Of a stretch of DNA of 64,000 bases, positions 4,756-59,525 are shown piece after piece. Position 1 is the first letter of the stretch. Every line of letters starts with the position of its first letter. The translations under genes were made by a program, and so were the position numbers. Source of the DNA: Burkholderiales bacterium (lineage in GTDB: Bacteria; Pseudomonadota; Gammaproteobacteria; Burkholderiales; SG8-41); the NCBI GenBank assembly GCA_019751125.1, contig JAIENU010000037.1, forward strand, positions 17,586 to 81,585. The letters run 5' to 3'. The notes beneath the pieces were generated by a model. The model was given only the letters and a program-made list of their open reading frames with translations, was not told the origin of the DNA and searched no databases.

Positions 4756-5535
4756 ATGCTGCGAAGCCGCGAACGGGCGGTATTTTACGTGAACACGCCG
4801 GAAGCCCTCAAAAATATTCGCGTGGTGCTTTGCTCCACCGCGCATCCCGGCAACATCGGTTCGGCCGCGCGCGCGATGCGCACGATGGGCATCACCGACC
4901 TAGCGCTGGTCAATCCGCAGCGTTATCCCGATCCGCAGACGCAGTGGTTCGCCGCGGGCGCGGTGGATGTGCTGGAGTCGGCGCGGGTCTGCGCCTCACT
5001 GGATGAAGCGCTTGAAGGTGTGTCTTTTGCCGTGGCCTGCAGCGCCCGGCGGCGCGATATCGCGGTGCCGCTCACCGATGTCCGTTCGTCCGCACTGGAA
5101 GCAGTGGCCCAGGCGCAGCAGCAGCGCGTGGCTTTTGTGTTCGGCAACGAAACCTCGGGCCTGAGCAATGACGAGGTCAACCGTTGCCACCTGCTGGCGA
5201 CTATCCCGGTGGATCCGTCGTTTTCATCGCTCAATGTTGCCGCTGCGGTGCAGGTGTTCTGTTACGAGCTGCGCATGGCCTGTGGCGCGACGTTGCCGGA
5301 AGAACGCCCGCCACTGCTTGCGGCGATCAATGACGTTGAAGCGTTTTACCAGCATCTTGAAAGCACGCTGGTCGATACCGGCTTTCTCGATCCGAAGCAG
5401 CCGCGCAAGCTGATGCAGCGCCTGCGCCGGCTGTTCGGCCGGGTGCGGCTGCAGGTCGAGGAGGTCAACATCCTCCGCGGCATCCTCAGCAGCCTGACCC
5501 ATCCGCAGCCGCGGCGCGGTGGAGAAGATAAGTAA
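4756..5535 (+). CDS. trmJ: SpoU/TrmH-class tRNA 2'-O-methyltransferase (TrmJ-like)
   Basis: Motifs IRVVLCSTAHPGNIGSAARAMRTMG and FVFGNETSGLSNDE are present. Its position upstream of iscR fits trmJ. The exact start is uncertain. The stop TAA (5533-5535) lies inside an AT-rich repeat copy. Confidence 0.8.
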   Translation: MLRSRERAVFYVNTPEALKNIRVVLCSTAHPGNIGSAARAMRTMGITDLALVNPQRYPDPQTQWFAAGAVDVLESARVCASLDEALEGVSFAVACSARRRDIAVPLTDVRSSALEAVAQAQQQRVAFVFGNETSGLSNDEVNRCHLLATIPVDPSFSSLNVAAAVQVFCYELRMACGATLPEERPPLLAAINDVEAFYQHLESTLVDTGFLDPKQPRKLMQRLRRLFGRVRLQVEEVNILRGILSSLTHPQPRRGGEDK

Positions 5536-5566
5536 GCCATTGTTTTATAACAACTTTATTGTCAAT
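5528..5566 (+). repeat. AT-rich dispersed repeat, copy a
   Basis: ATAAGTAAGCCATTGTTTTATAACAACTTTATTGTCAAT shares the AAGCCATTGTTTT..A core with 8 other copies. It spans the trmJ stop codon. Confidence 0.7.
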
Positions 5567-5634
5567 CCCTAAAGTTGATTAAAATAGTGGGACTTGCCGC
5601 TGGTTCTGCGGCGGTTTTTGACAGCCCACAAGCC

Positions 5635-6357
5635 ATGTTCGACCGTATTCGCGAAGAAATTGCCGTTGTTTTTGAACGTGATCCCGCTGCGCGCAGCCGT
5701 TGGGAGGTGGTGACCTGTTATCCCGGCTTCCATGCGCTGATCGCGCACCGCCTGTCGCACGGGCTGTGGACTGCGGGTCTGAAGTGGCTGGCGCGCTGGG
5801 TGGCGCATGGCGCGCGCTGGCTGACCGGTATCGAGATCCATCCCGGCGCACGCATCGGCCGGCGCTTTTTCATCGACCATGGCATGGGCGTGGTGATCGG
5901 CGAGACCGCGGAGATCGGTGATGACTGCACGATCTATCACGGTGTCACGCTCGGCGGCACCACTTGGAACAAGGGCAAGCGCCACCCGACGCTGAAGGAT
6001 GGCGTGGTGATCGGCGCTGGCGCCAAGGTGCTGGGCCCGATCACCATCGGCGAGCAGGCCAAGATCGGTTCCAACGCGGTGGTGGTGAAGGATGTGCCGC
6101 CGCGTGCGACCGCGATCGGCATTCCGGCGCGGCTGGTCGAGACCCAGGAGACAGGGGGGCAGTTTGCCGCCTATGCGGTGTCGCGCGACGCCAATGATCC
6201 GGTGGCGCGGGCCATGCATGCGCTGATCGACCACAGTGCCGATACCGACAAACGCATCGACCAGATCATCGCCGAGTTGCAGCGCCTGGGCCTGAAGATC
6301 GAGGGAGCTGATACGCAGAAAATCGACGCTACCGGCCTCAACCGGATAGTTGATTGA
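5635..6357 (+). CDS. cysE: Serine O-acetyltransferase
   Basis: The N-terminus from ATG 5635 reads [21 protein letters not shown], typical of short CysE proteins. The left-handed beta-helix hexapeptide region is [38 protein letters not shown]. The track ORF begins at 5575, an upstream in-frame start that I consider less likely. Confidence 0.9.
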
Positions 6358-6378
6358 AATCGTCGGATTTACTACAAT
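6350..6378 (+). promoter_or_regulatory. Putative sigma70 promoter of the iscR-suf operon
   Basis: TTGATT (6350-6355), a 17-nt spacer, then TACAAT (6373-6378), about 100 nt upstream of the iscR ATG. This is a sequence match only. Confidence 0.45.
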
Positions 6379-6401
6379 ATCCGACCAAGTTGCTGGGGAT
6401 T
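6377..6401 (+). promoter_or_regulatory. Putative IscR type-1 operator
   Basis: ATATCCGACCAAGTTGCTGGGGATT (25 nt) overlaps the -10 box. From memory, it resembles the E. coli iscR-promoter site ATAGTTGACCAATTTACTCGGGAAT. It matches about two thirds of the ATASYYGACTRWWWYAGTCRRSTAT consensus. Confidence 0.3.
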
Positions 6402-6430
6402 AATCCTTCGAGGCAACATCCACGAGAGTC

Positions 6431-6465
6431 TTTATAAGCCATTGTTTTTAAAGACTATTTTATAG
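6431..6465 (+). repeat. AT-rich dispersed repeat, copy b
   Basis: TTTATAAGCCATTGTTTTTAAAGACTATTTTATAG lies in the predicted 5' UTR of iscR and ends 10 nt before the ATG. Confidence 0.7.
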
Positions 6466-6474
6466 GGGTATCCA

Positions 6475-6951
6475 ATGAGACTGACGACCAAAGGCCGCTT
6501 TGCAGTAACCGCGATGGTGGATCTGGGTATGCGCCACGGCAGTGGCCCGGTGACCCTGGCCGAGATCAGCGGCCGTCAGAAAATCTCGCTGTCCTACCTC
6601 GAGCAGCTGTTCGGCAAGCTGCGCCGGCGCAACATCGTCGATTCGGTGCGTGGCCCCGGTGGCGGCTACTGCCTGGCCCGCGACATGGCGACGCTGACCG
6701 TGTCCGAAATCATTCTCGCGGTCGATGAGCCGATCGATGCGACCCAGTGCGGCGGCAAGGAAAACTGCAAGGACGAGGAGAAGTGCCTGACCCATGACCT
6801 GTGGGCCAACCTCAACCAGCGCATTTTTGATTATCTCGGTTCGGTCACGCTGCGCCAGCTGGTGGAAAACCAGCGCGCCAAGGAAGCCGGCATTGCGCCG
6901 GTGCACGACATGCGCCAGGTGGCGCGCCGGCCGAGTGCAATTCCGGTCTGA
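6475..6951 (+). CDS. iscR: Rrf2-family Fe-S cluster regulator IscR
   Basis: N-terminal wHTH region: MRLTTKGRFAVTAMVDL. The cluster-ligand signature C-x5-C-x5-C-x2-H is present in QCGGKENCKDEEKCLTHD. Confidence 0.9.
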   Translation: MRLTTKGRFAVTAMVDLGMRHGSGPVTLAEISGRQKISLSYLEQLFGKLRRRNIVDSVRGPGGGYCLARDMATLTVSEIILAVDEPIDATQCGGKENCKDEEKCLTHDLWANLNQRIFDYLGSVTLRQLVENQRAKEAGIAPVHDMRQVARRPSAIPV

Positions 6952-6976
6952 TCACCGGGTCCTGCGCAGATAAGCG

Positions 6977-8137
6977 ATGAACGCGCATCACAAGCCGGTC
7001 TATTTCGACCACAACGCCACCACGCCGCTCGATCCGCGCGTGCTGGAAGCGATGTTGCCCTTCCTGCGCGAGCAGTGCGGAAATGCATCGAGCCGCCACG
7101 AGCTGGGCACGGTGGCGCGGCATGCCATCGACCGCGCGCGCGAGCAGGTGGCGGCGGCGGTCGGCGTGCAGCCGGTGCAGGTGGTGTTCACCAGCGGTGG
7201 TACCGAAGCCAACAACCTGTTCATCCGCGGCACGGCCGCCGGCATGAAGCCGGGACAGATTGCGCTGAGCGCGATCGAGCATCCCTGCGTGGTCGGCCCG
7301 GCCCAGGATCTGCAGCGCCAGGGCTGGACGCTGCGCCGTCTGAAAGTGAATCGTGACGGCGTGCTCGATGCCGCCGACATCGACGCCGCAATTGCCGGCA
7401 GGCCGCAGCTGTGGTCGGCGATGCTCGCCAACAATGAAACCGGCGTGGTGCAGGACATCCCCGCCATTGCCGAGCGCGCACGCAGTGCCGGTGCGGTGGT
7501 GCATAGCGATGCGGTGCAGGCGCTGGGCAAGATTGCAGTCGATTTCCGCGCGCTCAATGTGCAGGCGCTGACCGTGTCGGCGCACAAGATCTGCGGCCCC
7601 AAGGGCGCCGGTGCGCTGGTCATCGACAAACGTCTCGATCTGCGCGCGCTGCTCGCCGGCGGCGGCCAGGAGCGTGGTTTGCGCGGCGGCACCGAGAATG
7701 TGCCGGCGATCGTCGGTTTTGGCGCAGCCTGTGACATTGCGATGGCGCAGCTGGGTGAGCGTTCGAAACGCATTGGCGCGCTGCGAGAGCGTCTTGAACG
7801 CGGCTTGCACGGCCAGCGCGCGGTGATTTTTGGCGAGGCTGCCCCGCAGCGCCTGCCCAATACCACGTATTTCGCGCTGCACGGCATACACGGTGAGGCG
7901 CTGGTGATCGAGCTCGACAAGGCGGGTTATGCCACCGGTTCCGGCGCGGCCTGCTCCAGTTCCAGCGATGCGCCGTCATCGACGCTGCTGGCAATGGGCA
8001 TTGAGCCCGAACTGGCGCGTGGCGCAGTACGCATCTCGCTGGGCGAAGGCAACAACGCGGAGCAGGTTGACGGTTTTCTGCAGGCGCTCGCCGCGGTGGC
8101 GAAGCGCCTGCGCGGTTTGCAGGCAGTGGCGGTCTGA
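6977..8137 (+). CDS. Class V aminotransferase-fold cysteine desulfurase, NifS/IscS-like (group I)
   Basis: 386 aa. Motifs: FDHNATTP, TSGGTEANN, PLP-lysine motif SAHKICGPKG, and catalytic-loop Cys in GSGAACSS. Confidence 0.85.
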   Translation: MNAHHKPVYFDHNATTPLDPRVLEAMLPFLREQCGNASSRHELGTVARHAIDRAREQVAAAVGVQPVQVVFTSGGTEANNLFIRGTAAGMKPGQIALSAIEHPCVVGPAQDLQRQGWTLRRLKVNRDGVLDAADIDAAIAGRPQLWSAMLANNETGVVQDIPAIAERARSAGAVVHSDAVQALGKIAVDFRALNVQALTVSAHKICGPKGAGALVIDKRLDLRALLAGGGQERGLRGGTENVPAIVGFGAACDIAMAQLGERSKRIGALRERLERGLHGQRAVIFGEAAPQRLPNTTYFALHGIHGEALVIELDKAGYATGSGAACSSSSDAPSSTLLAMGIEPELARGAVRISLGEGNNAEQVDGFLQALAAVAKRLRGLQAVAV

Positions 8138-8159
8138 CTGCCAGGTATTGAAGGAGCGA

Positions 8160-8498
8160 ATGATGGCCATACAACTGACTGAAAGTGCAGCAAGGCAAAT
8201 CAAGGCGCAACTCGCCAAACGCGGCAAAGGTCTTGGCCTGCGCGTCGGCGTCAAGAAAACCGGCTGCTCGGGCTGGGCCTACACCTATGACTACGCCGAT
8301 GACGTGAAGGCGGTGGATCAGGTGTTTGAATCGCATGAGGCGAAGCTGGTGGTTGATGGTGAGAGCCTGGAATTCATGGACGGCTCGACCATCGATTACG
8401 TGCGCGAAGGCCTGAAGCAGGCGTTCAAGGTGGAGAACCCCAAGGTCGATGCCACCTGCGGCTGTGGCGAAAGTTTCACGGTCAAGGCCGGCAGCTGA
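8160..8498 (+). CDS. sufA: A-type Fe-S cluster carrier (IscA/SufA/ErpA family)
   Basis: AAGGAG RBS lies upstream. The HesB-like sequence has GCSG and a C-terminal CGCGESF motif. It sits immediately upstream of sufB. Confidence 0.8.
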
Positions 8499-8544
8499 GC
8501 AGCGCCAAACCCGGGCCCCCAACGGACACCCCCATGAGCACCTC

Positions 8545-10765
<2,221 letters not shown>

Positions 10766-10769
<4 letters not shown>

Positions 10770-12088
10770 GCGTGATCGCAGCACACCCCTACGTGGCCAC
10801 GCTGCTCGCAGGCAGCGCTGCCGTGCCGAAAAGCCCCGCAGCCTGGCTGGATGCCCTGCGTGCTGCGGCGCTGGAGCGTGCCAATGCACTGTCGGTGCCA
10901 ACGACCCGTGACGAGGAATGGCGTTTCACCGATCTGACGCCGCTCACCAAGCTGCAGCTCAAGCCGGTGACCACGGCGACGGCGCTGACGGCTGCAGATA
11001 TCGCCGGCCATGTGTTGCCCGAGGCTGCGGTGCGACTGGTGTTTGTGGATGGCATTCTGCTGCCGCAGCTGGGTGAGGCAGGCAAATTGCCGGCCGGCGT
11101 CACCGTGCTGTCCTTGTCCGAGGCGCTGAAAACCCATGCCGCGCTGGTCGAGCCGCATCTGGCGAAGCTCGCTGGCGATGACCTGTTCACTGCGTTGAAC
11201 ACCGCCTTCCTGAATCAGGGCGTGTTCGTCCATTTTGCAAAAGGCGCGGCGCTCAAGGCGCCGCTGCACCTGCTGTTTGTCGCCGCCGGACAGGATGTCG
11301 CGGCGCATCCGCGGGTGCTGATCGTTGCCGAGTCCGGTGCCGAAGGCTCGGTGATCGAGGATTACGTGGCCCACGGCGAGGTTGCGGGCCTGACCAATGC
11401 CGTGACCGAAATTGCCGTGGCGGCGAATGCCTTGCTGCGCCACATCAAGCTGCAGCGCGAAAGCGGCAAGGCCTTCCACATTGGCAGCAGTGCGGTTACG
11501 CTGGGCAAGGATGCCCGTTTTGTTTCGCAGGCGGTGACGCTGGGCGCGCGGTTGTCGCGCAACAATCTGACGATCCGCCAGCAGGGTGAGGGCATCGAGG
11601 TCGCCATCGACGGCCTCGCGCTGATCGCAGGCCGGCAACTGGCTGATACGCATACGCTGATCGACCACCTGAAACCCCACGGCCGCTGCGAGCAGGTGCA
11701 CAAGACCATCGTCGGTGGCGGTGCACATGCAGTGTTCAACGGCAAGGTCTTCGTGCGCGAGGGCGCGCAGCTCACCGATTCCTCGCAGCAGAGCCGCAAC
11801 CTGCTGCTGTCGGACAAGGCGCGGGTGGACACCAAGCCGCAGCTCGAGATTTTTGCCGATGACGTGAAATGCGCCCACGGCGCCGCGGTCGGCCAGCTCG
11901 ATCCCGAGCATCTGTTCTATCTGAAAAGCCGCGGCCTCTCGGAGCGCGCCGCACGCAATCTGCTGACCTATGCCTTTGGTGCAGAGATCATCGACCGCAT
12001 TCCGGTGCCGTCGCTGGTGGCGAAACTGGAGAAGCTGGTGATGCAACGTACTGGAGACAACAAGAATGGGCAGGGAGAGGGCGCATGA
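10766..12088 (+). CDS. sufD: Fe-S cluster assembly protein SufD
   Basis: 440 aa. SufB/D-family C-terminal region: [33 protein letters not shown]. The GTG start overlaps the sufC stop. Confidence 0.88.
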
Positions 12089-13329
12089 GTGGCCGCGATC
12101 CCCTGCTGAAACCGATCGACGTCGCCGCACTGCGCCGCGACTTCCCCATCCTCGACCTGAAGGTCAAGGATAAGCCATTGATTTTTATGGATAATGCGGC
12201 ATCGAGCCAGATGCCGCGCCAGGTCATCGAACGCTGGGTGAAATACCGTTCGGCGCAGCACGCCAACATCCACCGCGCGGTGCACTACCTGTCGGAGACG
12301 GCGACCGCCGAATACGAAGCGGCGCGGCGCAAGGTGCAGGCCTTCCTCAATGCCCGCGAAGAGCGCGAGTGCGTTTTCACCAGCGGCACCACCGACGGCA
12401 TTAACCTGGTGGCTCATGGTTATGGCCGCAAGTTCTTTGGTGCCGGCGACGAGATCATCCTGACCACGCTCGAGCACCACTCCAACATCGTGCCCTGGCA
12501 GATGGTGGCCGAAGAGAAGGGCGCGAAGATCCGCGTGGTGCCGGTCAACGACCGTGGCGAGCTGCTGGTCGATGAATACCGCAGGCTGTTCAACAAGAAC
12601 ACCAAATTCGTGGCGATGACCCACGTGTCGAATGCGCTGGGCACCATCAATCCGGTGAAGGAGATGGTGGCGATTGCGCATGAGCATGGTGTGCCGGTGC
12701 TGGTGGATGGCGCGCAGGCGGCGCCGCACCTGAAGGTTGATGTGCAGGATATCGGCTGCGATTTCTACGCCTTCTCCGGCCACAAGGTTTGCGGGCCCAC
12801 CGGCATCGGTGTGCTGTATGGCCGCGCCGAACTGCTCGAGAAAATGCAGCCCTTCAAGGGTGGCGGCGACATGATTTTATCGGTGACTTTCGAGAAAACG
12901 ACGTACGCACCGATTCCCGCCAAGTTCGAGGCGGGCACGCCGCCGATCGGTGAGGCGATTACGCTGGGCGCGGCGCTGGATTACCTGACCGGCATCGGCC
13001 TCGAACGCATCGCCGCGCACGAAACCGACCTGCTCGATTACGCCACCGACCGTTTCAACCGCCTGCCCGGCGTGCGCCTGATCGGCACCGCCGAGAAAAA
13101 GGCCGCGGTGCTGTCTTTCGCGGTGGAAGGCGTGCATCCCCACGACGTCGGCTCGCTGCTCAATGATGACGGCGTGGCGATCCGCACCGGACACCACTGC
13201 GCGCAGCCGGTGATGCAGCGCTTCAAGGTTCCGGCGACCTGCCGTGCGTCCTTTGCCTTCTACAACACCACCGACGAAGTCGATGCGCTGGTCGCGTCGA
13301 TCGGCCGTGTGCAGAAGTTGTTCGCATGA
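12085..13329 (+). CDS. sufS: Group II cysteine desulfurase SufS
   Basis: ATG 12085 overlaps the sufD stop. Motifs: IFMDNAASSQ, HHSNIVPWQ, PLP-lysine FSGHKVCGPTG, RTGHHCAQP. Confidence 0.92.
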   Translation: MSGRDPLLKPIDVAALRRDFPILDLKVKDKPLIFMDNAASSQMPRQVIERWVKYRSAQHANIHRAVHYLSETATAEYEAARRKVQAFLNAREERECVFTSGTTDGINLVAHGYGRKFFGAGDEIILTTLEHHSNIVPWQMVAEEKGAKIRVVPVNDRGELLVDEYRRLFNKNTKFVAMTHVSNALGTINPVKEMVAIAHEHGVPVLVDGAQAAPHLKVDVQDIGCDFYAFSGHKVCGPTGIGVLYGRAELLEKMQPFKGGGDMILSVTFEKTTYAPIPAKFEAGTPPIGEAITLGAALDYLTGIGLERIAAHETDLLDYATDRFNRLPGVRLIGTAEKKAAVLSFAVEGVHPHDVGSLLNDDGVAIRTGHHCAQPVMQRFKVPATCRASFAFYNTTDEVDALVASIGRVQKLFA

Positions 13330-14466: not shown

Positions 14467-14474
14467 GTTTTCCG

Positions 14475-17159: not shown

Positions 17160-17242
17160 CTGAGCGATGCGGCGGCGTCCGCTTGCGGTGCGCTTGTCCT
17201 GCCACTTGCATCATGCCGGTGCAGTTCCACGCTGGTGGATGG

Positions 17243-17276
17243 TATATAAGTCATTGTTTTAATTGATATTTTTATC
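17243..17276 (+). repeat. AT-rich dispersed repeat, copy c
   Basis: TATATAAGTCATTGTTTTAATTGATATTTTTATC, intergenic. Confidence 0.75.
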
Positions 17277-17365
17277 TGGCATCGTCCTTGCTGAACTGTC
17301 AGCGCCTGGCGGCACCTTCATTGGAGGGGGTGAAGGTCTGAACCACTCTTGCGGGAGAGCAGACC

Positions 17366-20615: not shown

Positions 20616-21548
20616 ATGAACATCCAGCACCACCTCCTGCGCACTTTTATTGCTGTTGCCGCCGCGCGCACGGTGACCAAGGCTGCCGCGGTACTGCATC
20701 TTACACAGCCGGCGGTGAGTGGACACCTGCGCGTGCTTGAGGATGAGCTGCAGCTGAAGCTTTTCGAGCGCGGCACCGCCGGCATGCGCCTGACCCGTGC
20801 CGGCGAGCTGCTGCTGCCGCACGCGCAGAGCGTGATCGCCGCGATGGACCAGTTCAAGCTGCTGTCGACCCAGCTGCTGAACCGCCGCGCCGAAAAAGTC
20901 CGGCTTGGCACCATCCTTGATCCTGAATTCCTGCGTGTCGGCGCCTTGCTCGCCTCGGTGGTGGAGAAACATCCGCTGCTCGATGTCGAGCTGCAGCACG
21001 GCATCACCATGCAGTGGGTGGACCAGTTGCTCAAGGGTGAACTGGATGCCGGCTTCGGCCTGGGTGCCATTGACGATGCGCGTATCGAGTGCCGCTGGCT
21101 GACCGAGGTCAACCATGTGGTGGTGTATCCGGCGGGTTGGGCCGCGCGGCTGAAAAAAATCGACTGGCCCGAACTTGCGCGCATGCCGTGGATACATCCG
21201 CCCGAGCATTCGCCGCAGCGCCGCCTCTTGGTCGGCATCTTCGAACGTTATCGCCTGACGCCGACGCAATCGGTGCAGGCCGACCAGGAATCAACGATGT
21301 CCTCGCTGGTCGCCGCCGGCGTGGGGCTCTCCATCATGCGTGAGGACCTCGCGCGTGCGGCGCAGCAGCGGGGGCAGGTGAGGATCTGGCCGCCGGGGCG
21401 TGCATCGACCCCCTTGCATTTTATTTATGCGGCATCGCGATCAGACGATCCGATTGTGGTTTCAATCCGTGATGCTGCCCTGGCGATCTGGGATCCGCTA
21501 CGCGAGGCCCGTTCTGCACCAAAAAAGAAAATAAATAAAAACAAGTAG
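20616..21548 (+). CDS. LysR-family transcriptional regulator
   Basis: It starts MNIQHHLLRTFIAVAAARTVTKAAAVLHLTQPAVSGHLRVLEDEL (LysR HTH). The last codons (PKKKINKNK plus stop) are encoded by an inverted AT-rich repeat copy. Confidence 0.88.
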   Translation: MNIQHHLLRTFIAVAAARTVTKAAAVLHLTQPAVSGHLRVLEDELQLKLFERGTAGMRLTRAGELLLPHAQSVIAAMDQFKLLSTQLLNRRAEKVRLGTILDPEFLRVGALLASVVEKHPLLDVELQHGITMQWVDQLLKGELDAGFGLGAIDDARIECRWLTEVNHVVVYPAGWAARLKKIDWPELARMPWIHPPEHSPQRRLLVGIFERYRLTPTQSVQADQESTMSSLVAAGVGLSIMREDLARAAQQRGQVRIWPPGRASTPLHFIYAASRSDDPIVVSIRDAALAIWDPLREARSAPKKKINKNK

Positions 21549-21560
21549 TTGTATTAATTT
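21521..21560 (-). repeat. AT-rich dispersed repeat, copy i (the only clear inverted copy)
   Basis: The reverse complement reads AAATTAATACAACTACTTGTTTTTATTTATTTTCTTTTTT and shares the TTGTTTTTATT core. It overlaps the 3' end and stop codon of the LysR gene. Confidence 0.6.
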
Positions 21561-26203: not shown

Positions 26204-27226
26204 ATGAATATTCTTAAGCCATTGTTTTTATTGATATTTATTTCCTCCTTCATGGCGCTGCCTGCAATGGCAGGGCCCGGTCACGACCATGGCGATGCCG
26301 CTCCTGCGGCCACCGGCAACAGTCCCAAGCGCCAGGCTGACGGCAGCGTATTTCTGCCCAAGCCGGCGCAACGCCAGATCGGGGTGCGCACTGCAGTGTT
26401 GAAGGACGGCGAGTTGCCCAAAGCCATTGAACTGAATGGCCGCGTGGTGATGGACCCGAATGCCGGCGGCAAGGTGCAGGCGATTGTTGCGGGCCGTGTC
26501 ACGCCGGGTCCGCGCGGCCTTCCGTTGCCGGGACAGAAGGTGAACAAGGGAGAAGTGCTGGCCTATGTCACGCCGGAAGTCGGCGGGCGCACACGTTCGC
26601 TTGCCGAGAGCCGGCTGCAACGCTTGCGCGAACTGGCTGATACCGTGCCCCGCAAGGTGATTGAGGAGGCCGAGGCCGCAGTCGCCAACGAGCAGTTGCG
26701 CGCGCCGGTGAGTGGCGTGATTGCATCCGCTTTTGTGGTGTCGGGGCAGGTCGTGGATGCGCGCGAGACCTTGTTCGAGATCGTCAATCCCGAACGCATG
26801 ATTGTTGAGGCACTTGCGTTTGACATGGCGATTGCGTCGAACATTGCTTCGGCGAGCATCGTCGCCGGCGGCAAACGCGTGCCGCTGAAACTGGTGGGCG
26901 TGGCGCGCAGCCTGCGCGAACAGGCCTTGCCGCTGACTTTCCGCGGTGAAGGTCCGGCGATGGCGCAGCTTGCGCTGGGACAGCCGGTGAAGCTGGTGGT
27001 GCAGACACGCGACACGGTGCGCGGCGTTGCGGTGCCCACCGCGGCGCTGATGAAAAATCCCGCTAATCAGACCATCGTCTGGGTTAAGACCGCGCCCGAG
27101 CGGTTCGAGCCGCGGCCGGTGACGGTGGAGCCGCTGGACGGATCGACGGTGGCACTGCTTTCCGGGGTGGAGCCCGGTCAGCGCGTCGCGGTCGAGGCTG
27201 CAAACCTGATCAACCAGATTCGCTGA
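26204..27226 (+). CDS. czcB: RND membrane-fusion (periplasmic adaptor) protein, CzcB/CusB-like
   Basis: HlyD-type adaptor features: QRQIGVRT, and a lipoyl/beta-barrel region with LRAPVSGVI. The N-terminal signal sequence MNILKPLFLLIFISSFMALPAMA is largely encoded by AT-rich repeat copy d. Confidence 0.85.
   Translation: MNILKPLFLLIFISSFMALPAMAGPGHDHGDAAPAATGNSPKRQADGSVFLPKPAQRQIGVRTAVLKDGELPKAIELNGRVVMDPNAGGKVQAIVAGRVTPGPRGLPLPGQKVNKGEVLAYVTPEVGGRTRSLAESRLQRLRELADTVPRKVIEEAEAAVANEQLRAPVSGVIASAFVVSGQVVDARETLFEIVNPERMIVEALAFDMAIASNIASASIVAGGKRVPLKLVGVARSLREQALPLTFRGEGPAMAQLALGQPVKLVVQTRDTVRGVAVPTAALMKNPANQTIVWVKTAPERFEPRPVTVEPLDGSTVALLSGVEPGQRVAVEAANLINQIR
26211..26245 (+). repeat. AT-rich dispersed repeat, copy d (inside the czcB 5' end)
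   Basis: TTCTTAAGCCATTGTTTTTATTGATATTTATTTCC. Confidence 0.75.
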
Positions 27227-30841: not shown

Positions 30842-30885
30842 GATATAAGCTGTTGTTTTTATTGATATTATTTATCGCTTATAAT
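30842..30885 (+). repeat. AT-rich dispersed repeat, copy e
   Basis: GATATAAGCTGTTGTTTTTATTGATATTATTTATCGCTTATAAT, about 55 nt upstream of prfC. It ends in a TATAAT hexamer. Confidence 0.75.
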
Positions 30886-38365: not shown

Positions 38366-41860
<3,495 letters not shown>

Positions 41861-45426: not shown

Positions 45427-45933
45427 ATGATCGAGCGCCGGCCTGTTCCAGCTGCATCCCTGCTGGCGCGCCACGCCGGTGCTGATGGTTACGCCGATTG
45501 TTACTGCACCGAAATCGACGGCAGTGTCAGCCACGCTGAATTTGTCGAGGCCTTCTACACCACGCCGTTGTTCAAGGTGGAGCGTTTGATCCTGCGGCTG
45601 GCGGTTTCGCGGCCATCGACCGACGCGGAAGCGCGGCAGCTCGCGCGTGGCGAACGTGATCAATTCGCCGCATGGTCGGTCAAGGCGCGTGATGTGAACC
45701 AGTTGCTGCTCGCGGACTTCTCCGGGCGCACCTGTTCCTGGCTGATGACCGAGGCGGTGGATTCCGGTGGTGTTGCGCGTACCCGGCTGTATTTCGGATC
45801 CGCAGTGCTGCCGCGTCGTGACCGGGTTACCGGGCGCAGCTCATTGGGGTTTGCCTTCAGTGCGCTGCTGGGTTTTCACAAGCTGTATTCGCGGGCTTTG
45901 CTGGCGGCTGCATGCAGGCGCCTGGTGAATTGA
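45427..45933 (+). CDS. Hypothetical protein (possibly DUF2867-like; unverified)
   Basis: ATG at 45427, 4 nt after the previous stop. 168 aa, soluble-looking with a hydrophobic C-terminal segment. The motif FVEAFYTTPLFKVERLIL recalls DUF2867 proteins. Confidence 0.5.
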   Translation: MIERRPVPAASLLARHAGADGYADCYCTEIDGSVSHAEFVEAFYTTPLFKVERLILRLAVSRPSTDAEARQLARGERDQFAAWSVKARDVNQLLLADFSGRTCSWLMTEAVDSGGVARTRLYFGSAVLPRRDRVTGRSSLGFAFSALLGFHKLYSRALLAAACRRLVN

Positions 45934-45970
45934 TATAACCAATTGTTTTTATTGATAAATATTTAATTTC
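45932..45970 (+). repeat. AT-rich dispersed repeat, copy g
   Basis: GATATAACCAATTGTTTTTATTGATAAATATTTAATTTC begins at the stop codon of the preceding gene. It opens a ~150-nt AT-rich intergenic region. Confidence 0.75.
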
Positions 45971-50147: not shown

Positions 50148-50990
50148 TCATGCCAGCTTGATCGCCACCGCGCCGGCCAGCACCAGCAGGATCGCCAGCC
50201 CGCGCATCGCACTGACTTTTTCGCCCAGCCACAGTGCGGCAATCAGCACGCCGAACACCACCGAGGTTTCGCGCAGTGCGGCCACCAGTGCAATCGGTGC
50301 CTGCGTCATGGCCCACAAGGTCAGGCCGTAGGCGCCCAGTGTACAGAATCCGCCGAACAGGCCGCGCCGCCAGTGCCGGCGCAGGTGAGTGGTGGTGGCG
50401 GGGCCTTCACGCCACAGAAACCAGCCCAGCAGAGGCAGTGCGGTGAGTACAAACAGCCAGCCGTTGTAGGCTGCGGCATGGCCGGAGAGCCGCGCTCCGG
50501 TGCCGTCGATCACGGTGTAGATCACAATGGTGGCGGCAGTAAGCAGCGGAAACAGCAGCGCGCGGCCGTGCAGCACGCCATTGCGCCAGTTATCACCGGC
50601 CATCAGCACCACGCCACTGCAGATCAGCGCCACACCCAGCCAGCCGGCGGGTGCCGGTGATTCACCCAGAAGGGCCACCGCCACCAGCGCCGAGCCGGCG
50701 GGTGCCAGACCGCGCATCACCGGATAGGCGAAGCTCAGTTCGGCATGACGGTAGGCATGGGCGACGAGCAGGAAGTAGGCGACATGGATGGCGCCCGAGG
50801 CGCCAAGCCAGGGCCAGCTGGCCCTAGCCGGTGACGGAACAAAGGGCAGGGCGAGTGCTGCCAGCAATGCCGCGGCAGCGACCACCAGCACCACGTCGCG
50901 GGTGCGATCCTGGCTGTTGCGGATCAGCGCATTCCACGCCGCGTGCAGCAGCGCCCCGGCAAGCACCACGGCCATGACTTCGATCGGCAT
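50148..50990 (-). CDS. EamA/DMT-superfamily transporter
   Basis: 280 aa, about 10 TM. The two halves are similar, as is typical of EamA-domain duplication. Confidence 0.75.
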   Translation of the reverse strand: MPIEVMAVVLAGALLHAAWNALIRNSQDRTRDVVLVVAAAALLAALALPFVPSPARASWPWLGASGAIHVAYFLLVAHAYRHAELSFAYPVMRGLAPAGSALVAVALLGESPAPAGWLGVALICSGVVLMAGDNWRNGVLHGRALLFPLLTAATIVIYTVIDGTGARLSGHAAAYNGWLFVLTALPLLGWFLWREGPATTTHLRRHWRRGLFGGFCTLGAYGLTLWAMTQAPIALVAALRETSVVFGVLIAALWLGEKVSAMRGLAILLVLAGAVAIKLA

Positions 50991-51014
50991 CGCTTGGGTT
51001 CGCTGTCCTGAACT

Positions 51015-51980: not shown

Positions 51981-51996
51981 ATGTTCCTGTGGTTCC

Positions 51997-52902
51997 TTAC
52001 TTCTTCCTGCCGGCGTCGCGCGCCGCGATCAGCGCGTCGATGACCGGGTGGATGCTGTCGGGTTCCTTGGTGAATTGTTGCGGCATGCCCATGGCGACCA
52101 TCTCCTTCAGCATCGCGATCGTGGCCTTGGTCGAGCGGTCGGTGGAGCCCATGTCGTGCAGCAGTTCCAGGCATTCCTTCATTTCATGCACACGCCGCTC
52201 GCAGTGCACCGCGGTGCCACCGACATAACGCTTGATGATTTTCTGGAAGGGAATGTCGTTGAAGGTCACCGAGGAATCCTCGATCACGGCATCGAGGATG
52301 TTGCGGCGCTGAGCGGCTTCCATGGTGTCGAGCAGCAGCATGGCGAGGCCCTTCATCAGCACGCTGCGGATCAGTTTCATCGCGCTGGCATCGCCGGGGC
52401 CTTTGCCGACGACGTTGATCACCATGCCCAGCGGGGTCATGCGGTCGCGGAATTCAATGGCGTGCGGGCCGCTGGCAACAAACGGCACCTTGATGCCCTG
52501 GATGTCCACCGGCCCCATCACCGAGGCGTCGACAAAACGTACCGCATCGCCGGCGAGTGCCGCGGCCTGCTCCATCGCCTTCGCCGAGTTGCTGCTGGCG
52601 TCGATGTAGAGATGATCCTTGCGCAGGTGCTTGAGGATCTTGCGCAGCGCGGGCACCGCGGCCTTGCCCGGTGTCAGCGCGATGATGATGTCGGTTTTTT
52701 TGGCCAGCGCGGCGGAGGTCTTGACCAGGGTGACGCCGATGGATTTGGCTTTTTCGTACAGCGCGTCACCGGGTTGTGCCTTGGCGCCGCTGCGGCTGTA
52801 GGCGACGATGCCGGTGATGCCGGCCTTGTGGAAATCACCGGCGAGGCGGGCGGCGGCTTCACCAAAACCGAGGAAGCCTAGGCGGATGCTGGGGGAGTTC
52901 AT
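51997..52902 (-). CDS. NAD(P)-binding dehydrogenase (6-phosphogluconate-dehydrogenase-like N-domain, DUF1932-type C-domain)
   Basis: Rossmann motif LGFLGFGEAAARLA follows the Met at 52902. Confidence 0.6.
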   Translation of the reverse strand: MNSPSIRLGFLGFGEAAARLAGDFHKAGITGIVAYSRSGAKAQPGDALYEKAKSIGVTLVKTSAALAKKTDIIIALTPGKAAVPALRKILKHLRKDHLYIDASSNSAKAMEQAAALAGDAVRFVDASVMGPVDIQGIKVPFVASGPHAIEFRDRMTPLGMVINVVGKGPGDASAMKLIRSVLMKGLAMLLLDTMEAAQRRNILDAVIEDSSVTFNDIPFQKIIKRYVGGTAVHCERRVHEMKECLELLHDMGSTDRSTKATIAMLKEMVAMGMPQQFTKEPDSIHPVIDALIAARDAGRKK

Positions 52903-52968
52903 TGCGTGGAAATTCCTGTGATGAGATGTCGATGCGTGCTGCAAGTATAGCCGCGCCGGCGTTCCGCT

Positions 52969-54867
<1,899 letters not shown>

Positions 54868-55026
54868 CGGGGCGGGGTCACAACAAGAGCTTCCGGCGGT
54901 GCTGCCGGACGGAAGCGGGGCCGCGATTGTACCTCTGGCATGGAGCCGGGCGCATCGCGGTGCGCAGGGGCGCGGCCTGGGTTATCCTTCGCCGCTGACC
55001 GCAAAATAATGACGGAGGAGAGCAGT

Positions 55027-56031
55027 ATGAAATCCAGCAAGATGAACCGCAGTACCCATCGCATGTCCGGTGTTGCACTGCTGTTGCCTGCCCTGGCCAT
55101 GCTCGGCCTGAGCATCCCGGCGGCCGCGCAGAGTGTCGACAAATTCCCGAACCGGCCGGTGCGTATCATCACCCCGGCTGCACCCGGTGGCACCACCGAC
55201 TTCCTGGCGCGCCTGCTCGCCAACCATCTGACCAAGGCCTGGAACCAGCAGGTGGTGGTGGATAACCGCGGCAGTGCCTCGGGTGTGAACGGCGCCGAGA
55301 TCACCAAGGATTCGCTGCCCGACGGCTACACCTTGTTCATCCCCTATCACCAGCACACGGTGAATGCGGCGATCATCCCCAAGCTGCCCTACCACCCGGT
55401 CAATGATTTCACGCCGATAACCCAGATGACCGCTGGCGGCCTGCTGCTGGTGGTGAACCCCTCGCATCCGGCGAAGACCGCGAAGGACTTTGTGCAGTGG
55501 AGCAAGACCACCAAGGATCCGATCAACTTCGGTTCCGCCGGTATCGGCAGCGGCGGCCACCTTGCCGGTGAGCTGTTCAAGCTGATGACCAACAGTCCGG
55601 GCCAGCATATCCCTTACAAGGGTACCGGCCCGGCGGCCGTGGCGCTGATCCAGGGCGAATACCACTACAACTTCATGGGCCTGACCGGTGCGTTTGCGCA
55701 GGTGCGTGCCGGCAAGCTGCGCGCGATCGCAGTGACCGATGCCAAGCGCATCAAGGCCGCGCCCGATGTGCCGGCGATGTCAGAAGTGCTGCCCGGCTTT
55801 GAAGTGGTGGGCTGGTACGGCGTGGCGGGTCCGGCGAAAATGCCGAAGCCGCTGCTGACGAAAATCCATGCCGATATCGCGGCCTATGTGAAGTCGCCGG
55901 AATTCGGCAAGGTGGCGGAGAACAATGGTTCCGAGGCGGTGACCAACTCGCCCGAGGAATTCCGCAAGTTCATGCTCGACGACATGAAGAAGTGGTCGGA
56001 CGTGGTCAAGCGCAGCGGCGCGAAGTTCTGA
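55027..56031 (+). CDS. Bug/TctC-family substrate-binding protein
   Basis: It starts MKSSKMNRSTHRMSGVALLLPALAMLGLSIPAAAQ. The family motif is KFPNRPVRIITPAAPGGTTDFLAR. The track ORF carries a long upstream extension that is antisense to the ABC-F gene. Confidence 0.85.
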   Translation: MKSSKMNRSTHRMSGVALLLPALAMLGLSIPAAAQSVDKFPNRPVRIITPAAPGGTTDFLARLLANHLTKAWNQQVVVDNRGSASGVNGAEITKDSLPDGYTLFIPYHQHTVNAAIIPKLPYHPVNDFTPITQMTAGGLLLVVNPSHPAKTAKDFVQWSKTTKDPINFGSAGIGSGGHLAGELFKLMTNSPGQHIPYKGTGPAAVALIQGEYHYNFMGLTGAFAQVRAGKLRAIAVTDAKRIKAAPDVPAMSEVLPGFEVVGWYGVAGPAKMPKPLLTKIHADIAAYVKSPEFGKVAENNGSEAVTNSPEEFRKFMLDDMKKWSDVVKRSGAKF

Positions 56032-56050
56032 ACGCGGCGTCAGGTCAGAC

Positions 56051-56084
56051 AAAAAGGGGCGGAAGATTCCGCCCCTTTTTTATT
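56051..56084. terminator. Bidirectional Rho-independent terminator
   Basis: AAAAA-GGGGCGG-AAGATT-CCGCCCC-TTTTTT lies between convergent genes. Confidence 0.8.
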
Positions 56085-56100
56085 GCTGTGTCGACCGGAC

Positions 56101-57180
56101 TCAGCTGAACTTGACGACCTTGGGATCGAACTCGAGGCCCAGGCCCGGTTTCTGCGGCACTGTCAGCTTGCCGTCCTTCGGCAGCACCACTTCCTTGAAC
56201 AGCCGAGATGACCAGGGCATGTATTCGACGGTGAGGCCGTTGGGCACCGCGGACACCAGGTGCACGTGGATTTCCGGCGCGAGGTGGCTGACCACCGGCA
56301 GGTTGAAGGCCTCGGCCATGCCGGCGATCTTCAGCCACTGCGTGATGCCGCCGGCGCGCAGCACGTCGATCATCACGATGTCCACCGAACGTGCCTCCAG
56401 CATCTGGCGGAACGGCGAGATGCCGTAGAGGTATTCGCCGCAGGCCACCGGCGTGTCGAGAGCCTGCGTGATTGCGGCGAGTCCGGCGTAGTCATCGCAG
56501 GTGGTGACGTCTTCGAGCCAGAACAGCCGGTAGGGATCGACCTGTTTGCCGATGGAGATGGCCTGGCGCACGTCCCAGCGCTGGTTGATGTCGCACATCA
56601 GGTCGGTTTCGTAGCCGATGGCCTCGCGGATCAGGCGGATGCGCTCGATCTCCTTCACCTGGTTGGTGTCGCCGGGGAGTGCCAGCTGGGTTTTCATCTG
56701 GCGGAAACCGCGCGACTTGAGCAGTGCCGCGGCCTTCACCACATGGTCCAGCGGGAAATGGCGCATCAGCGCGCCGCTGGCATAGGTGTTGACCGTGTTG
56801 CGGTGGCCGCCGGCCAGCGTCGCCACCGGCTGGTTGTAAACCTTGCCCTTGATGTCCCACAGCGCGATGTCGATCGCGGACAGTGCCAGCGTCAGGATGC
56901 CGCCGGGGCCGCCGGGTGATGAGGCGCGCAGCTTGTCGGCGATATGTTCGTTGCGCAGCGGGTCCTCGCCCTTGCACAGTTCGGCGAGGTCGGTCACCGC
57001 GGTGAGCAGAGCGCGGTCGAGCGAGCCCCCGAAAAAGGTGAAGCCGATGCCTTCAACGCCGGCGTCGGTGCCGAACTTCAGCACGATGAAGTTTTTCGAT
57101 CCCGGCGTGGTCGGGCCGTCGGCCAGCGGTTCGTCGTGCGGCAGCGAGGCGAGGGCGGTACTGGCGTGGGTGATTTTCAT
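56101..57180 (-). CDS. Enolase-superfamily enzyme (mandelate racemase/muconate lactonizing enzyme family)
   Basis: 359 aa. Metal-ligand regions are present: LMCDINQRW, LFWLEDV, ACGEY. The capping domain has the N-terminal motif FIVLKFGTDAGVEGIG. Confidence 0.78.
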   Translation of the reverse strand: MKITHASTALASLPHDEPLADGPTTPGSKNFIVLKFGTDAGVEGIGFTFFGGSLDRALLTAVTDLAELCKGEDPLRNEHIADKLRASSPGGPGGILTLALSAIDIALWDIKGKVYNQPVATLAGGHRNTVNTYASGALMRHFPLDHVVKAAALLKSRGFRQMKTQLALPGDTNQVKEIERIRLIREAIGYETDLMCDINQRWDVRQAISIGKQVDPYRLFWLEDVTTCDDYAGLAAITQALDTPVACGEYLYGISPFRQMLEARSVDIVMIDVLRAGGITQWLKIAGMAEAFNLPVVSHLAPEIHVHLVSAVPNGLTVEYMPWSSRLFKEVVLPKDGKLTVPQKPGLGLEFDPKVVKFS

Positions 57181-57277
57181 GGCGTCATTCCTGTGGTCGG
57201 ATCGACGCGATTTTAACGGCTGTGATCCGGCGCAGTGCGGTCAACCCACGATACGGACGCTCGGTTATGCGCTGCGG

Positions 57278-57835
57278 TTACGGCTTTAATGCATAGACCT
57301 CGTCGAAGCGCCGTTCCAGTTCGGCATGGGTGCCGCGCAGGCGGTCGACTACTTCCTTGGCCCATTCAAAGTATTGACGTTTACGTTCAATTGACCAGTT
57401 GGCGGGCGCGCGGGTGCCGAGGTCGCGCACATTGCAGATCTTGTCGGCGAGCTTGACCAGGCGCGCGCGTTCGCTGGAATGCCGGGCCTTGGCCACCTGC
57501 AGGCGCTTGCGCAATTCCTTCTTGATCCACTGGGTGTCGGTGACCTCGAGCACGATGTCGGCGATTTCCTCGCCGAATTCGCCGCGTAATTCCTGCCAGC
57601 TGGTTTCGGTGTCTTCCAGCGTGTCGTGCAGCAGCGCGGCGGCGAGCACCAGCGGATCGCGCACGCCGCCTTCGTCCCACAGCACATGGGCGAGCTCGAT
57701 CGGGTGGTTGATGTACGGCGAGGCTTCCTTGTCCTTGCGCCGCTGGTCACGGTGCTTGTGCGCGGCAAAGGCCACGGCACGCAGGATCAGGTCGGTGGTG
57801 CCTGGTTCGGTGCTGGGAAGCTGGTCGAGGTCCAT
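57278..57835 (-). CDS. Stand-alone HD-domain (p)ppGpp hydrolase-like protein (Mesh1/small alarmone hydrolase type)
   Basis: It starts MDLDQLPS. Motifs: AFAAHKHRDQRRKDKEASPYINHPIELA and AALLHDTLEDT. The 387-aa track ORF extends upstream through Arg-rich sequence antisense to the neighbouring transporter, which I consider non-coding. Confidence 0.75.
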   Translation of the reverse strand: MDLDQLPSTEPGTTDLILRAVAFAAHKHRDQRRKDKEASPYINHPIELAHVLWDEGGVRDPLVLAAALLHDTLEDTETSWQELRGEFGEEIADIVLEVTDTQWIKKELRKRLQVAKARHSSERARLVKLADKICNVRDLGTRAPANWSIERKRQYFEWAKEVVDRLRGTHAELERRFDEVYALKP

Positions 57836-57852
57836 GATGCTTGTTCGTCCGC

Positions 57853-59475
57853 TCAGGCGCTGCGCAGCCCGCGCCAGCGGGTGATCAGGATCGCGGCAAA
57901 AGGCAGTGCCACCGCTATGACCAGTTGCACGATCAGCAGTTCCGGCAGCTGGCTGTAGTCGGCCGGGGTGGTGACTGCGCCGGACTTGTCTTTCACCTCG
58001 CGCGACACCACATAGATCTGGTTGAAGTACTTGGTGCCCAGTGCCGAGGCCGACAGCGCGAGGTTGGTGAACGAAGCCATCACCGCGAAGTAGGTGGCCT
58101 TCAGGTGCGCCGGCGCGGAATTGGCGATCCACGCCAGCATCGGGATCATCGCGATCTGGCCCAGCGGCGATTCGAGCGCGGTGTTGACCAGCGCGATGAA
58201 GCGCGCATCGACCACGCCACCAGTGGCGGCCGCTGTCCAGTGGTGCAGGCCGAAGATCATGCCGAGGTAGGGCAGCGACAGCACGGCGCCGACCACGGTG
58301 AGAAAGCCGACGACATAGGCGATGGAATGCTCGGCGATGAAGCGGCGGAAGATGAACATGCCGAACAAGGTCAGCACCGAGCCGATCAGCGACAGCAGCG
58401 CGATGAACTGCTGGTCGAATTTGAGCTCGTCGATGAACCACCAGGTGATGCCTTCGCCCGGCCCCGGTATCGCGCGAAACACGAAGATCACGATCACCGT
58501 GCCGAGCAGTGTGGCGCGGGCTTCGGGTTCAAGCTCGCGGGTCAGCCGCAGCAGCAGGAAGCTGATGATGGCGAAGGAACCGATGAAAATGATTTCCTGG
58601 TTCCATTTGAGGCCGCTGAAGCCCATGCCCAGAGTGAAGGCGACGAACACCGCGCTGCCGCCGAGGATCCACCAGTTCGGGGCGGTTTTTTCTGTGCGTG
58701 GATCGAGCAGGGCGCGCGCCTCGTCAGGGCTGCGGCCCTGGGCGACCAGCTGGCGGAAGTTGCGCCGGCGCAGCACCATCGCCACCACCACGCCGAGCAC
58801 CGAAATCGCCGGAATGCACAGCGCGGCGGTGTAGACCTGGCGGTAGATCGCGACCTTGTCGGCTTCGGACAGCGCGTGTACGCCGCTGAACACATACAGA
58901 TTGATCACCGATACCAGCACGCCGCCGCCAATGATCGCGACCCGGCCGAGAACCTGCATCGTGGTGTTCATCAGCTTGCGTTGTGCGTGGTCGATGGGCC
59001 GGCCTTCGGCATCGACATGCGGCACGGCTTCGACGGTCATCGCGTCGGCCACCACGTCCTGCACCACGTAACCGACGGCGGCGAGCAGCACGCTGGCGAC
59101 AAACCAGTGGCCGGGTTTCATTACTGCAGCCATTGCATCGCGGTCGCCGAGCAGGCCGACCATGATCAGCAGGCTCGCAGCGATCATTGCCGCGCCGATG
59201 AACACCATGATGCTTTTCCAGCGCCAGATCAGGTCGACGAGGTGGCCCAGCGGCATTTTTAATGCCCAGGGCACACCGGCCCAGAAGCCGAGCGCGGCGA
59301 GGAAGGCGGCGGAGAGGTCGAGGTAATCCTTGACGAAGAAGGTGCCGACGATGCCGGTGAGCCCGGAAATGCCGGCGGCCATATAGACCATCAGCGGCGG
59401 CAGGTAGGAGAGGCGCATTTCGCGGCCCAGCGAAATGAGGTTGCGATCCAGCCACTGCCACAATGCGTTGATCAT
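57853..59475 (-). CDS. Folate/biopterin-transporter (BT1) family MFS-type permease
   Basis: 540 aa with 12 or more TM segments. An N-terminal region (LSYLPPLMVYMAAGISGLTGI...KMPLGHLVD) recalls the BT1 family. Confidence 0.65.
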   Translation of the reverse strand: MINALWQWLDRNLISLGREMRLSYLPPLMVYMAAGISGLTGIVGTFFVKDYLDLSAAFLAALGFWAGVPWALKMPLGHLVDLIWRWKSIMVFIGAAMIAASLLIMVGLLGDRDAMAAVMKPGHWFVASVLLAAVGYVVQDVVADAMTVEAVPHVDAEGRPIDHAQRKLMNTTMQVLGRVAIIGGGVLVSVINLYVFSGVHALSEADKVAIYRQVYTAALCIPAISVLGVVVAMVLRRRNFRQLVAQGRSPDEARALLDPRTEKTAPNWWILGGSAVFVAFTLGMGFSGLKWNQEIIFIGSFAIISFLLLRLTRELEPEARATLLGTVIVIFVFRAIPGPGEGITWWFIDELKFDQQFIALLSLIGSVLTLFGMFIFRRFIAEHSIAYVVGFLTVVGAVLSLPYLGMIFGLHHWTAAATGGVVDARFIALVNTALESPLGQIAMIPMLAWIANSAPAHLKATYFAVMASFTNLALSASALGTKYFNQIYVVSREVKDKSGAVTTPADYSQLPELLIVQLVIAVALPFAAILITRWRGLRSA

Positions 59476-59482
59476 AGGGCGT

Positions 59483-59525
59483 TAATATTAACTAATTGTT
59501 TTTAAATGATTATTTTTATTCATTC
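59483..59525 (+). repeat. AT-rich dispersed repeat, copy h
   Basis: TAATATTAACTAATTGTTTTTAAATGATTATTTTTATTCATTC fills the 44-nt gap between two minus-strand genes. Confidence 0.7.

Follow-up and report, generated by a model that had tools for sequence, protein, structure and literature searches.

The stretch of DNA analysed here, 64,000 nucleotides of contig JAIENU010000037.1 from a Burkholderiales bacterium (assembly GCA_019751125.1), is called the window below, and with a GC content of about 63% it raises the question of what the nine short and mutually similar AT-rich sequences dispersed along it can be. A first-pass annotation described them as a repeat family that it did not recognise, and listed as possible roles a binding site for IHF (integration host factor) or another nucleoid protein, an uptake signal, a replichore-polarised motif and the footprint of a small mobile element. 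Our analysis leads us to regard the nine "repeats" as likely to be specific binding sites for IHF or a very close DNABII relative. The nucleoid-protein part of that list is the one that is supported, by the architecture of the sites and by orthologous sites that swap to the canonical IHF consensus, and the other roles are not. In the comparisons reported below the sequence behaves as a binding-site motif, and is taken as such and not as a lineage-specific repeat family.

The nine copies themselves are real. All were confirmed at their given coordinates by reading the sequence, they form the largest direct-repeat family found by a repeat search of the window, and a position-specific profile built from them recovers all nine in a scan of the window, with no other match below E = 0.7. 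The 28-nt common core proposed at first is loose, as no more than three copies agree with it at three or fewer mismatches. The family is most cleanly defined on the other strand from that written originally, by a core of 13 bp, AAACAANNNNTTR. In the form AAACAA-N4-TTR, this core matches the window nine times, each match being one of the nine copies, while 0.31 matches are expected from dinucleotide shuffles (maximum 2). The canonical IHF core WATCAA-N4-TTR has two further matches, at 12171-12183 on the minus strand and 53929-53941 on the plus strand, with 0.49 expected. A weight matrix made from 12 independent sites of other genomes gives these eleven window sites scores of 21-42, with the next best position below 18; an earlier matrix, trained on a set that included ascertained matches, had maxima of about 3 on shuffled sequence. 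A profile made only from matches in other genomes finds d, c, e and b in the window at E ≤ 3.5e-5, has a, g and f as marginal hits (E 0.19-3.8) and does not find h and i. In addition, when a discrete AT island is defined as at least 24 of 30 bases being A or T, all islands outside the low-GC region of the window carry the motif (eight original copies and one at 53.9 kb), and six more all lie within that region, at 43-44 kb. The sites, with their weight-matrix scores where available, and the candidate promoter beside one of them are as follows.

5528-5566, minus strand: site a, between a trmJ-like SpoU methylase gene and a serine-acetyltransferase-like gene; core AAACAATGGCTTA at 5533-5545; score 31.8.
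6431-6465, minus strand: site b, in the leader of an Rrf2/IscR-like gene (ATG 6475), downstream of a conserved putative IscR-box promoter; core AAACAATGGCTTA at 6435-6447.
12163-12207, minus strand: canonical extra member, within a SufS-like gene; core AATCAATGGCTTA at 12171-12183; score 21.4.
17239-17283, minus strand: site c; core AAACAATGACTTA at 17247-17259; score 40.4.
17277-17292, plus strand: sigma-54-type -24/-12 promoter, TGGCATcgtccTTGCT, directly downstream of site c.
21521-21560, plus strand: site i, overlapping the end of a LysR gene; core AAACAAGTAGTTG at 21539-21551; score 38.1.
26211-26245, minus strand: site d, in a CzcB-like efflux adaptor gene (ATG 26204, by gene call and Pfam); core AAACAATGGCTTA at 26215-26227; score 35.5.
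30842-30885, minus strand: site e, 55 bp upstream of prfC (RF3), with a TATAAT hexamer on its plus-strand 3' edge; core AAACAACAGCTTA at 30846-30858; score 27.2.
40803-40838, minus strand: site f, in frame within mfd; core AAACAATGAGTTA at 40808-40820.
45932-45970, minus strand: site g, between the low-GC island and a DUF4395 gene (46092); core AAACAATTGGTTA at 45936-45948; score 40.1.
53905-53949, plus strand: canonical extra member, within a YheS-like ABC-F gene (52969-54867, minus strand); core AATCAATGTATTG at 53929-53941; score 21.6.
59483-59525, minus strand: site h, occupying the 44-bp gap from the stop of an AMMECR1 gene to the start of a BT1-family transporter gene; core AAACAATTAGTTA at 59489-59501; score 35.7.

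Alignment of the nine copies leaves an invariant AA and a seven-base TTGTTTT with four variable bases between them, which on the opposite strand read as the TT of TTR and AAAACAA, and the 4-base spacer takes seven different values among the nine. The AT-rich zone around this core covers about 43 bp and is asymmetric, reaching out by about 22 bp on the hexamer (WATCAA) side and by 8-9 bp on that of TTR. The longer arm is AT-rich in all eleven sites, and five of them have a run of at least four A's there, often of 4-6 A's. Exactly 9 bp upstream of the core AA there is a second AA step in 7 of the 11 sites, TT in three and AT in one. Canonical IHF sites are described by WATCAA near the centre, TTR 4 bp to its 3' side, two base steps (usually AA) 9 bp apart at which prolines intercalate, and, for part of the sites, 4-6 consecutive A's in the 5' half. 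Together these elements cover 15-17 of about 34 bp (PMC1874591); WATCAR-N4-TTR is another form of the consensus, for a site of 35 bp whose other half has the A tract (bioRxiv 10.1101/382655). Going by the alignment, the window family shows all four published elements with one systematic departure: the core WATCA(A/R)-N4-TTR is exact in two sites, and the other nine fit 12 of its 13 positions and have A instead of T at position 3. The TATCAA present in the arm was also considered as the hexamer and rejected, since no TTR follows it; the fit is in the AAACAA-N4-TTA register. Judging by the IHF-DNA structure that is known, the protein would have about 35 bp of such a site wrapped around it and kinked at the two AA steps. 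With the A-rich arm clamped at its narrow minor groove on one side, and the TTR clamped on the other, the DNA would make a U-turn.

The orthologous sites in relatives give a further view of the departure at position 3. The mfd site is kept at the same place in the three closest Mfd relatives, as AAACAATGATTTA (L193), AAACAATGACTTA (L195) and the canonical AATCAATGAGTTA (L194), so that the hexamer is AAACAA in the window, L193 and L195 and canonical in L194, with a variable spacer. Copy b has counterparts in the iscR-like leader of 80 metagenomic relatives, and this position is AAACAA in L113 and L119 and canonical AATCAA-N4-TTR in L125, L126 and L127. On these alignments, A and T at hexamer position 3 are treated as equivalent by orthologous sites. 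Both a and b are present in L113, which is about 85% identical to the window in coding DNA; the non-coding DNA around site a is scrambled between the two, with TAAG and TGTTT kept and all four spacer bases different. A comparison of orthologous loci, which had been suggested as a way of detecting insertion, found all five comparable sites (a, b, 12171, 53929 and h) present in the few strains that are 93-97% identical, with the changes falling in spacer or arm. Among them, site a is kept in L197 and L198, the 12171 member is present in L197 and the 53929 member is identical in L196, where site h has its core kept, its spacer changed to TGAG and its arm diverged. As a separate observation, the TAA stop codon of trmJ (plus strand, 5533-5535) coincides with the TTA (TTR) of the site a core.

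We then present an overall view of the motif in other genomes. A pattern scan with one genome per species gave at least 111 loci. All 43 listed matches in loci of at least 55% GC are from Proteobacteria and none from other GC-rich phyla, and IHF occurs in Proteobacteria. Most of these listed GC-rich matches belong to Betaproteobacteria, with others in Pseudomonas, Cellvibrionales, Thermomonas, Paracoccus, Parvibaculum and further groups, and the motif is present in alpha-, beta- and gammaproteobacteria. In 42 of the 43, a pyrimidine adjoins the core at a position that the search pattern did not include; read on the other strand, it is the R of TTR. In an unbiased set, 317 kb of GC-rich proteobacterial DNA with the ascertained matches masked, there are 7 AAACAA-N4-TTR and 10 WATCAA-N4-TTR sites, both variants with an upstream A tract (mostly A5-6, about 8 bp upstream), and only three sites with G or C at position 3. 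Four Pseudomonas species (L024, L029, L057, L088) have one orthologous site in the spacer between ftsX and rpoH; it directly precedes a GGAACTT that resembles the -35 element of an AlgU/RpoE-type rpoH promoter. A literature search gave no paper with the exact sequence TTGTTTTTATTGAT, and searches on IHF or AT-rich repeats in Betaproteobacteria found nothing describing the motif family. BLAST of the consensus against plasmids returned only chance matches in AT-rich replicons, and Rfam and tRNA scans of the window had no matches.

Several of the sites lie in genes. The placements described at the outset are borne out, with copies a, b, c, e, g and h being intergenic (b in a 5' leader), d occupying codons 4-8 of the CzcB-like adaptor, f lying in frame within mfd and i overlapping the LysR stop codon. 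Site d, on the plus strand, encodes KPLFLLIF, the hydrophobic part of a signal peptide, and site f encodes EIDKNSNKNNELY in the variable mfd linker that precedes domain D3. The two canonical members lie in conserved protein segments: the 12171 member encodes DKPLIFMDNAA of SufS in A/T-ending codons, and the 53929 member encodes the conserved strand NTLILLEKVSC, with 11 of the 16 codons shown ending in A or T. About 75% of the codons of these two genes end in G or C. Alignment of SufS to solved structures, and of the YheS-like protein to E. coli YheS (solved structure), has no insertion at either member. The absence of insertion together with the A/T-ending codons favours DNA-level selection over mobile insertion at these two places. 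In other genomes the motif is found in the inter-domain linker of NuoG (L072, L075, L112), within an FAD-binding domain (L005), in the first codons of a TctC-family gene (L082) and in a candidate oxoprolinase-like gene (L067, L106; this gene identity is a tentative reading). In each of these cases it is read in a stop-free frame.

Two side observations belong to these in-gene sites. Like the end of trmJ, the end of the LysR-type regulator is shaped by a site: its tail PKKKINKNK* is encoded by the A-rich arm of site i (21512-21548), with the TAG stop in the spacer. Next to site f, in frame in the mfd linker, lies a GC-rich REP-like (repetitive extragenic palindrome) sequence (GCGGGGGAGGGTTGGGGTGGGGGC and its partner arm; 40752-40797), which is absent from the orthologous mfd of L193 and L195. 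A link between the family and REP palindromes was considered and rejected, since the palindrome beside f has no other copy in the window; and measured against the GC-rich palindromic stem-loop of REPs and BIMEs (bacterial interspersed mosaic elements), the family is AT-rich and without a stable shared fold.

The context of the intergenic sites points to local functions for some of them. A strict -24/-12 pattern for sigma-54 promoters, searched on both strands of 763 kb, has nine matches, and such motifs occur within 50 bp of 3 of 52 sites, with about 0.12 expected. One of the three is at window site c, where the promoter TGGCATcgtccTTGCT precedes an open reading frame for a 78-residue membrane protein (ATG 17366). 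The centre of site c is about 50 bp upstream of the inferred transcription start of this small gene, and such a distance is the usual position of IHF at sigma-54 promoters. Site c is placed as a probable architectural element of the sigma-54 promoter, where it would do local regulatory work. Local regulatory work is also probable, by their positions, for site b in the iscR-suf leader and for site e in the prfC promoter region, and the remaining sites may serve as general nucleoid-organising sites.

The iscR leader has some further features. The Rrf2/IscR-like gene heads a cluster of iscS-like, sufA-like and sufBCDS genes. Upstream of it (about 6340-6420), relatives (L113-L192) share a conserved pair of boxes, ATAGTTGACTAAAT...TCGGGTATTGTATAGTTGACAAAAT. 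They have the appearance of IscR type-1 operators that overlap a -35/-10 promoter, and are diverged in the window copy. An 8-bp inverted repeat, AGTCTTTA...TAAAGACT, brackets site b (6428-6458). Its fold as a single DNA strand has -5.2 kcal/mol (z = -3.4), and one of its arms differs by one base in L197; it could be a hairpin in the iscR leader or a second protein site.

Several points weigh against IHF as the explanation. Of the 11 window sites, 9 depart from the canonical T at hexamer position 3 and have A; the protein of this lineage may have shifted its preference, or the copies may go back to a common ancestor. The likeness among the copies goes beyond what the IHF consensus requires (for example in CAATAAAAACAAT), and canonical sites by themselves, at the two matches given above, are not enriched in the window. 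AT islands are about three times denser in the window (1 per 6 kb) than at the iscR loci of relatives (1 per 18 kb), and the linker sites of mfd and nuoG resemble insertions of 30-45 bp when compared with distant homologues. In addition, the scan pattern fixed much of the sequence, so that the similarity among the listed matches of other genomes is partly ascertainment. For the family in the window, IHF binding offers an account of the likeness: a genome of 63% GC has hardly any AT islands apart from such sites, so that they resemble a repeat family, and they would be alike because they satisfy the same binding requirements, not as copies of a moving element.

Some of these points also speak for competing explanations. 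A mobile-element footprint would here be a very small non-autonomous element, a "nano-MITE" (a MITE being a miniature transposable element with inverted repeats), that carries or mimics an IHF site and was spread by transposition or templated insertion, its in-gene copies surviving only in open frames. The excess likeness of the copies, the higher site density here than in relatives and the in-frame, stop-free linker positions in mfd, nuoG and the oxoprolinase-like gene would all agree with it, and there is a precedent of MITEs with IHF sites and in-frame gene insertions, e.g. in Coxiella (PMC5896051). However, the first-pass annotation already saw no long terminal inverted repeats, and indeed none is shared in the alignment. 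The copies have no common DNA fold or hairpin either, copy b alone folding better than shuffled sequence, by way of its own 8-bp inverted repeat. Inspection of the flanks gave no target-site duplication or flanking direct repeats, the element edges are fuzzy and not sharp, and no transposase gene stands beside any copy. Moreover, variation is concentrated in the 4-bp spacer and not even, the five comparable sites are stable in the 93-97% identical strains, with no presence/absence differences there or in L113, and the two members at 12171 and 53929 are codon choice within conserved protein segments. We hold a mobile origin to be unlikely. A further competitor, a different sequence-specific protein (nucleoid protein or global regulator) whose sites are IHF-like by resemblance only, stays in view because the A at position 3 is so uniform in the window. 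It could also draw on an ATTG(T/A)T direct repeat spaced by 9 bp, such as some tandem-binding regulators need, and on a site density that seems specific to the source genome. Against it stand the interchange of AAACAA and AATCAA at orthologous positions, the identical architecture across alpha-, beta- and gammaproteobacteria, the enrichment of sigma-54 promoters nearby, and the agreement of asymmetric arm, 9-bp AA spacing and TTR with the published IHF determinants; a protein other than IHF or its close relative seems to us a minor, though not negligible, prospect.

An element acting in RNA, U-rich in sense or A-rich (AAN)n in antisense, for example a site for ribosomal protein S1, Hfq or RNase E, would suit site b, whose place in a transcribed leader, directly before the Shine-Dalgarno sequence, is conserved in many relatives, and the antisense strand does read as AAN triplets. 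Yet the orientation relative to transcription differs among the copies, site c is upstream of its own promoter, neither an Rfam match nor a shared fold was found in the window, and invariant blocks with 4 free bp between them are a mark of DNA-protein sites, so that this explanation is very improbable. As to a KOPS- or Chi-type replication-polarised motif, or an uptake signal, the starting point was the claim that eight of the nine copies share one orientation, and this is correct, site i having the only plus-strand core among the original nine. These eight are on the G-rich strand of a window whose GC skew is uniformly positive, and in their phased T tracts the copies are reminiscent of the regions flanking Pasteurellaceae uptake sequences. 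With the two canonical members the count becomes 9:2 (two-sided p about 0.065), and of 40 GC-rich loci in other genomes only 23 have an orientation that agrees with the local GC skew (p = 0.43), which speaks against a replichore-polarised motif. Orientation was also said to be independent of gene strand, and we likewise see no relation to the strand of flanking genes. An uptake signal finds no support in a motif that is shared by alpha-, beta- and gammaproteobacteria and not specific to one lineage, and the density of about 1 per 6 kb is below that of typical uptake sequences; we give these two roles hardly any credence. Other candidates were rejected by eye because spacing or key bases do not fit, namely the Fur box, the FNR/CRP box, the sigma-70 -35/-10 promoter, Tus-Ter, dif, loxP-like sites and Tn7 TnsB sites. 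A small hydrophobic-peptide open reading frame was rejected as well, a start codon and open frame being present in copy d alone.

Read as IHF sites, the window sites can be set beside known systems. They share several properties with canonical IHF sites such as phage lambda attP H': the core is in two parts, with 4 bp of free spacer and an invariant TT(A/G); AA steps stand 9 bp from each other; the A/T arm is on the side of WATCAA; the whole covers about 35-43 bp; and use next to sigma-54 promoters is common to both. They are unlike them in the A at position 3 (9/11), in being unusually alike and in that several are in coding sequence. In RIB and RIP, the BIME-1 mosaics of E. coli, an IHF site stands between two REP palindromes, and to our knowledge these sites are always extragenic and between two convergent REPs. 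The window family shares with them the dispersed, repeated modules of about 35 bp that are predicted IHF sites, and site f adjoins a REP-like palindrome, but 10 of the 11 window sites are without a REP and several are in genes. MITEs that carry IHF sites, namely Neisseria Correia elements and Coxiella QMITE1, are likewise repeated, contain the IHF consensus, and have some copies that overlap genes or extend them in frame. Correia elements are 100-160 bp long. QMITE1 is about 400 bp (PMC5896051). Both are thus much longer than the window sites and have terminal inverted repeats and flanking direct repeats, whereas the window sites show none. As in the case of Rickettsia palindromic elements, some of the repeats are in frame within conserved protein genes; those elements, however, are palindromic, of 100-150 bp and clear insertions, whereas the window sites have no palindrome and two in-gene sites have no insertion at all. 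DNA uptake sequences (those of Neisseria and of Pasteurellaceae) are also short, abundant and dispersed motifs, the latter having AT-rich phased flanks, but they are specific to one lineage and the window motif spans three classes of Proteobacteria.

The spacing of the sites is the other property to be discussed. From 5533 to 59501 the gaps between the eleven sites are 0.9, 5.7, 5.1, 4.3, 4.7, 4.6, 10.0, 5.1, 8.0 and 5.6 kb, so that seven of ten are 4-6 kb, and the coefficient of variation is 0.44 (P = 0.005 against random placement). In a related strain the next sites follow 5.8 and 8.5 kb further on. It is conceivable, though doubtful, that in this lineage high-affinity IHF-type sites are kept at fairly even intervals of about 5 kb whatever the DNA encodes, with a role in chromosome architecture, for example as evenly spaced bend or loop anchors. 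Where no intergenic space is at hand, the sites would then be written into signal peptides, linkers and conserved segments by means of A/T-ending synonymous codons, under selection strong enough to override codon usage. That some sites are in genes without any insertion supports this idea. Against it, the regularity needs the two weaker in-gene sites to be counted, a related strain has a stretch of 11.7 kb without a site, other genomes have 2-4 sites within 8 kb, and operon lengths alone could give some regularity.

Besides the sites, two regions of the window are noticeable. The low-GC island at about 43.1-45.9 kb (GC 0.54-0.59) includes a two-gene candidate anti-phage system (43117-44047). 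Its first gene encodes a ThsB-like TIR protein (PADLOC ThsB 5.8e-73 and PDC-M50B 4.6e-62; Pfam ThsB_TIR), and the second is an open reading frame that overlaps the end of the first and matches PDC-M50A at 1.6e-30. The open reading frames downstream of the pair, up to 45.9 kb, have no Pfam or PADLOC match. The other region is window 1-3863, which is rearranged at the strain level relative to L197, L198 and L199 (93-95% identical further in). Related contigs have a signalling cluster of about 7 kb between the inositol-phosphatase and TPR genes, including a PAS histidine kinase, response regulators, a dCache kinase and an EAL protein, and the window has a GGDEF-EAL gene (483-3167) instead. A piece of 425 bp (3213-3637) is 99.5% identical, well above its flanks, and a 302-kb related contig has about 9.9 kb more DNA between two anchor genes.

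On the whole, the sites are best taken as an ordinary, known kind of feature, and only the maintenance within genes and the spacing are potentially unusual. The main value of the analysis is a correction, in that a conspicuous AT-rich "repeat family" against a GC-rich background may be something other than a mobile or uptake element, here probably the mark of a common architectural protein, and similar findings in GC-rich Proteobacteria can be checked with one 13-bp pattern. For uncultured Burkholderiales it gives a site model, AA(A/T)CAA-N4-TTR, to which an A/T arm and, 9 bp upstream, a second AA step belong. It also gives predicted regulatory links, which are the sigma-54 promoter with its putative bending site at 17.2 kb, the site in the prfC promoter region, and the iscR-suf leader site that is conserved across many Betaproteobacteria. 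If the in-gene sites and the even spacing were true genome-wide, they would indicate that nucleoid architecture constrains coding sequence.

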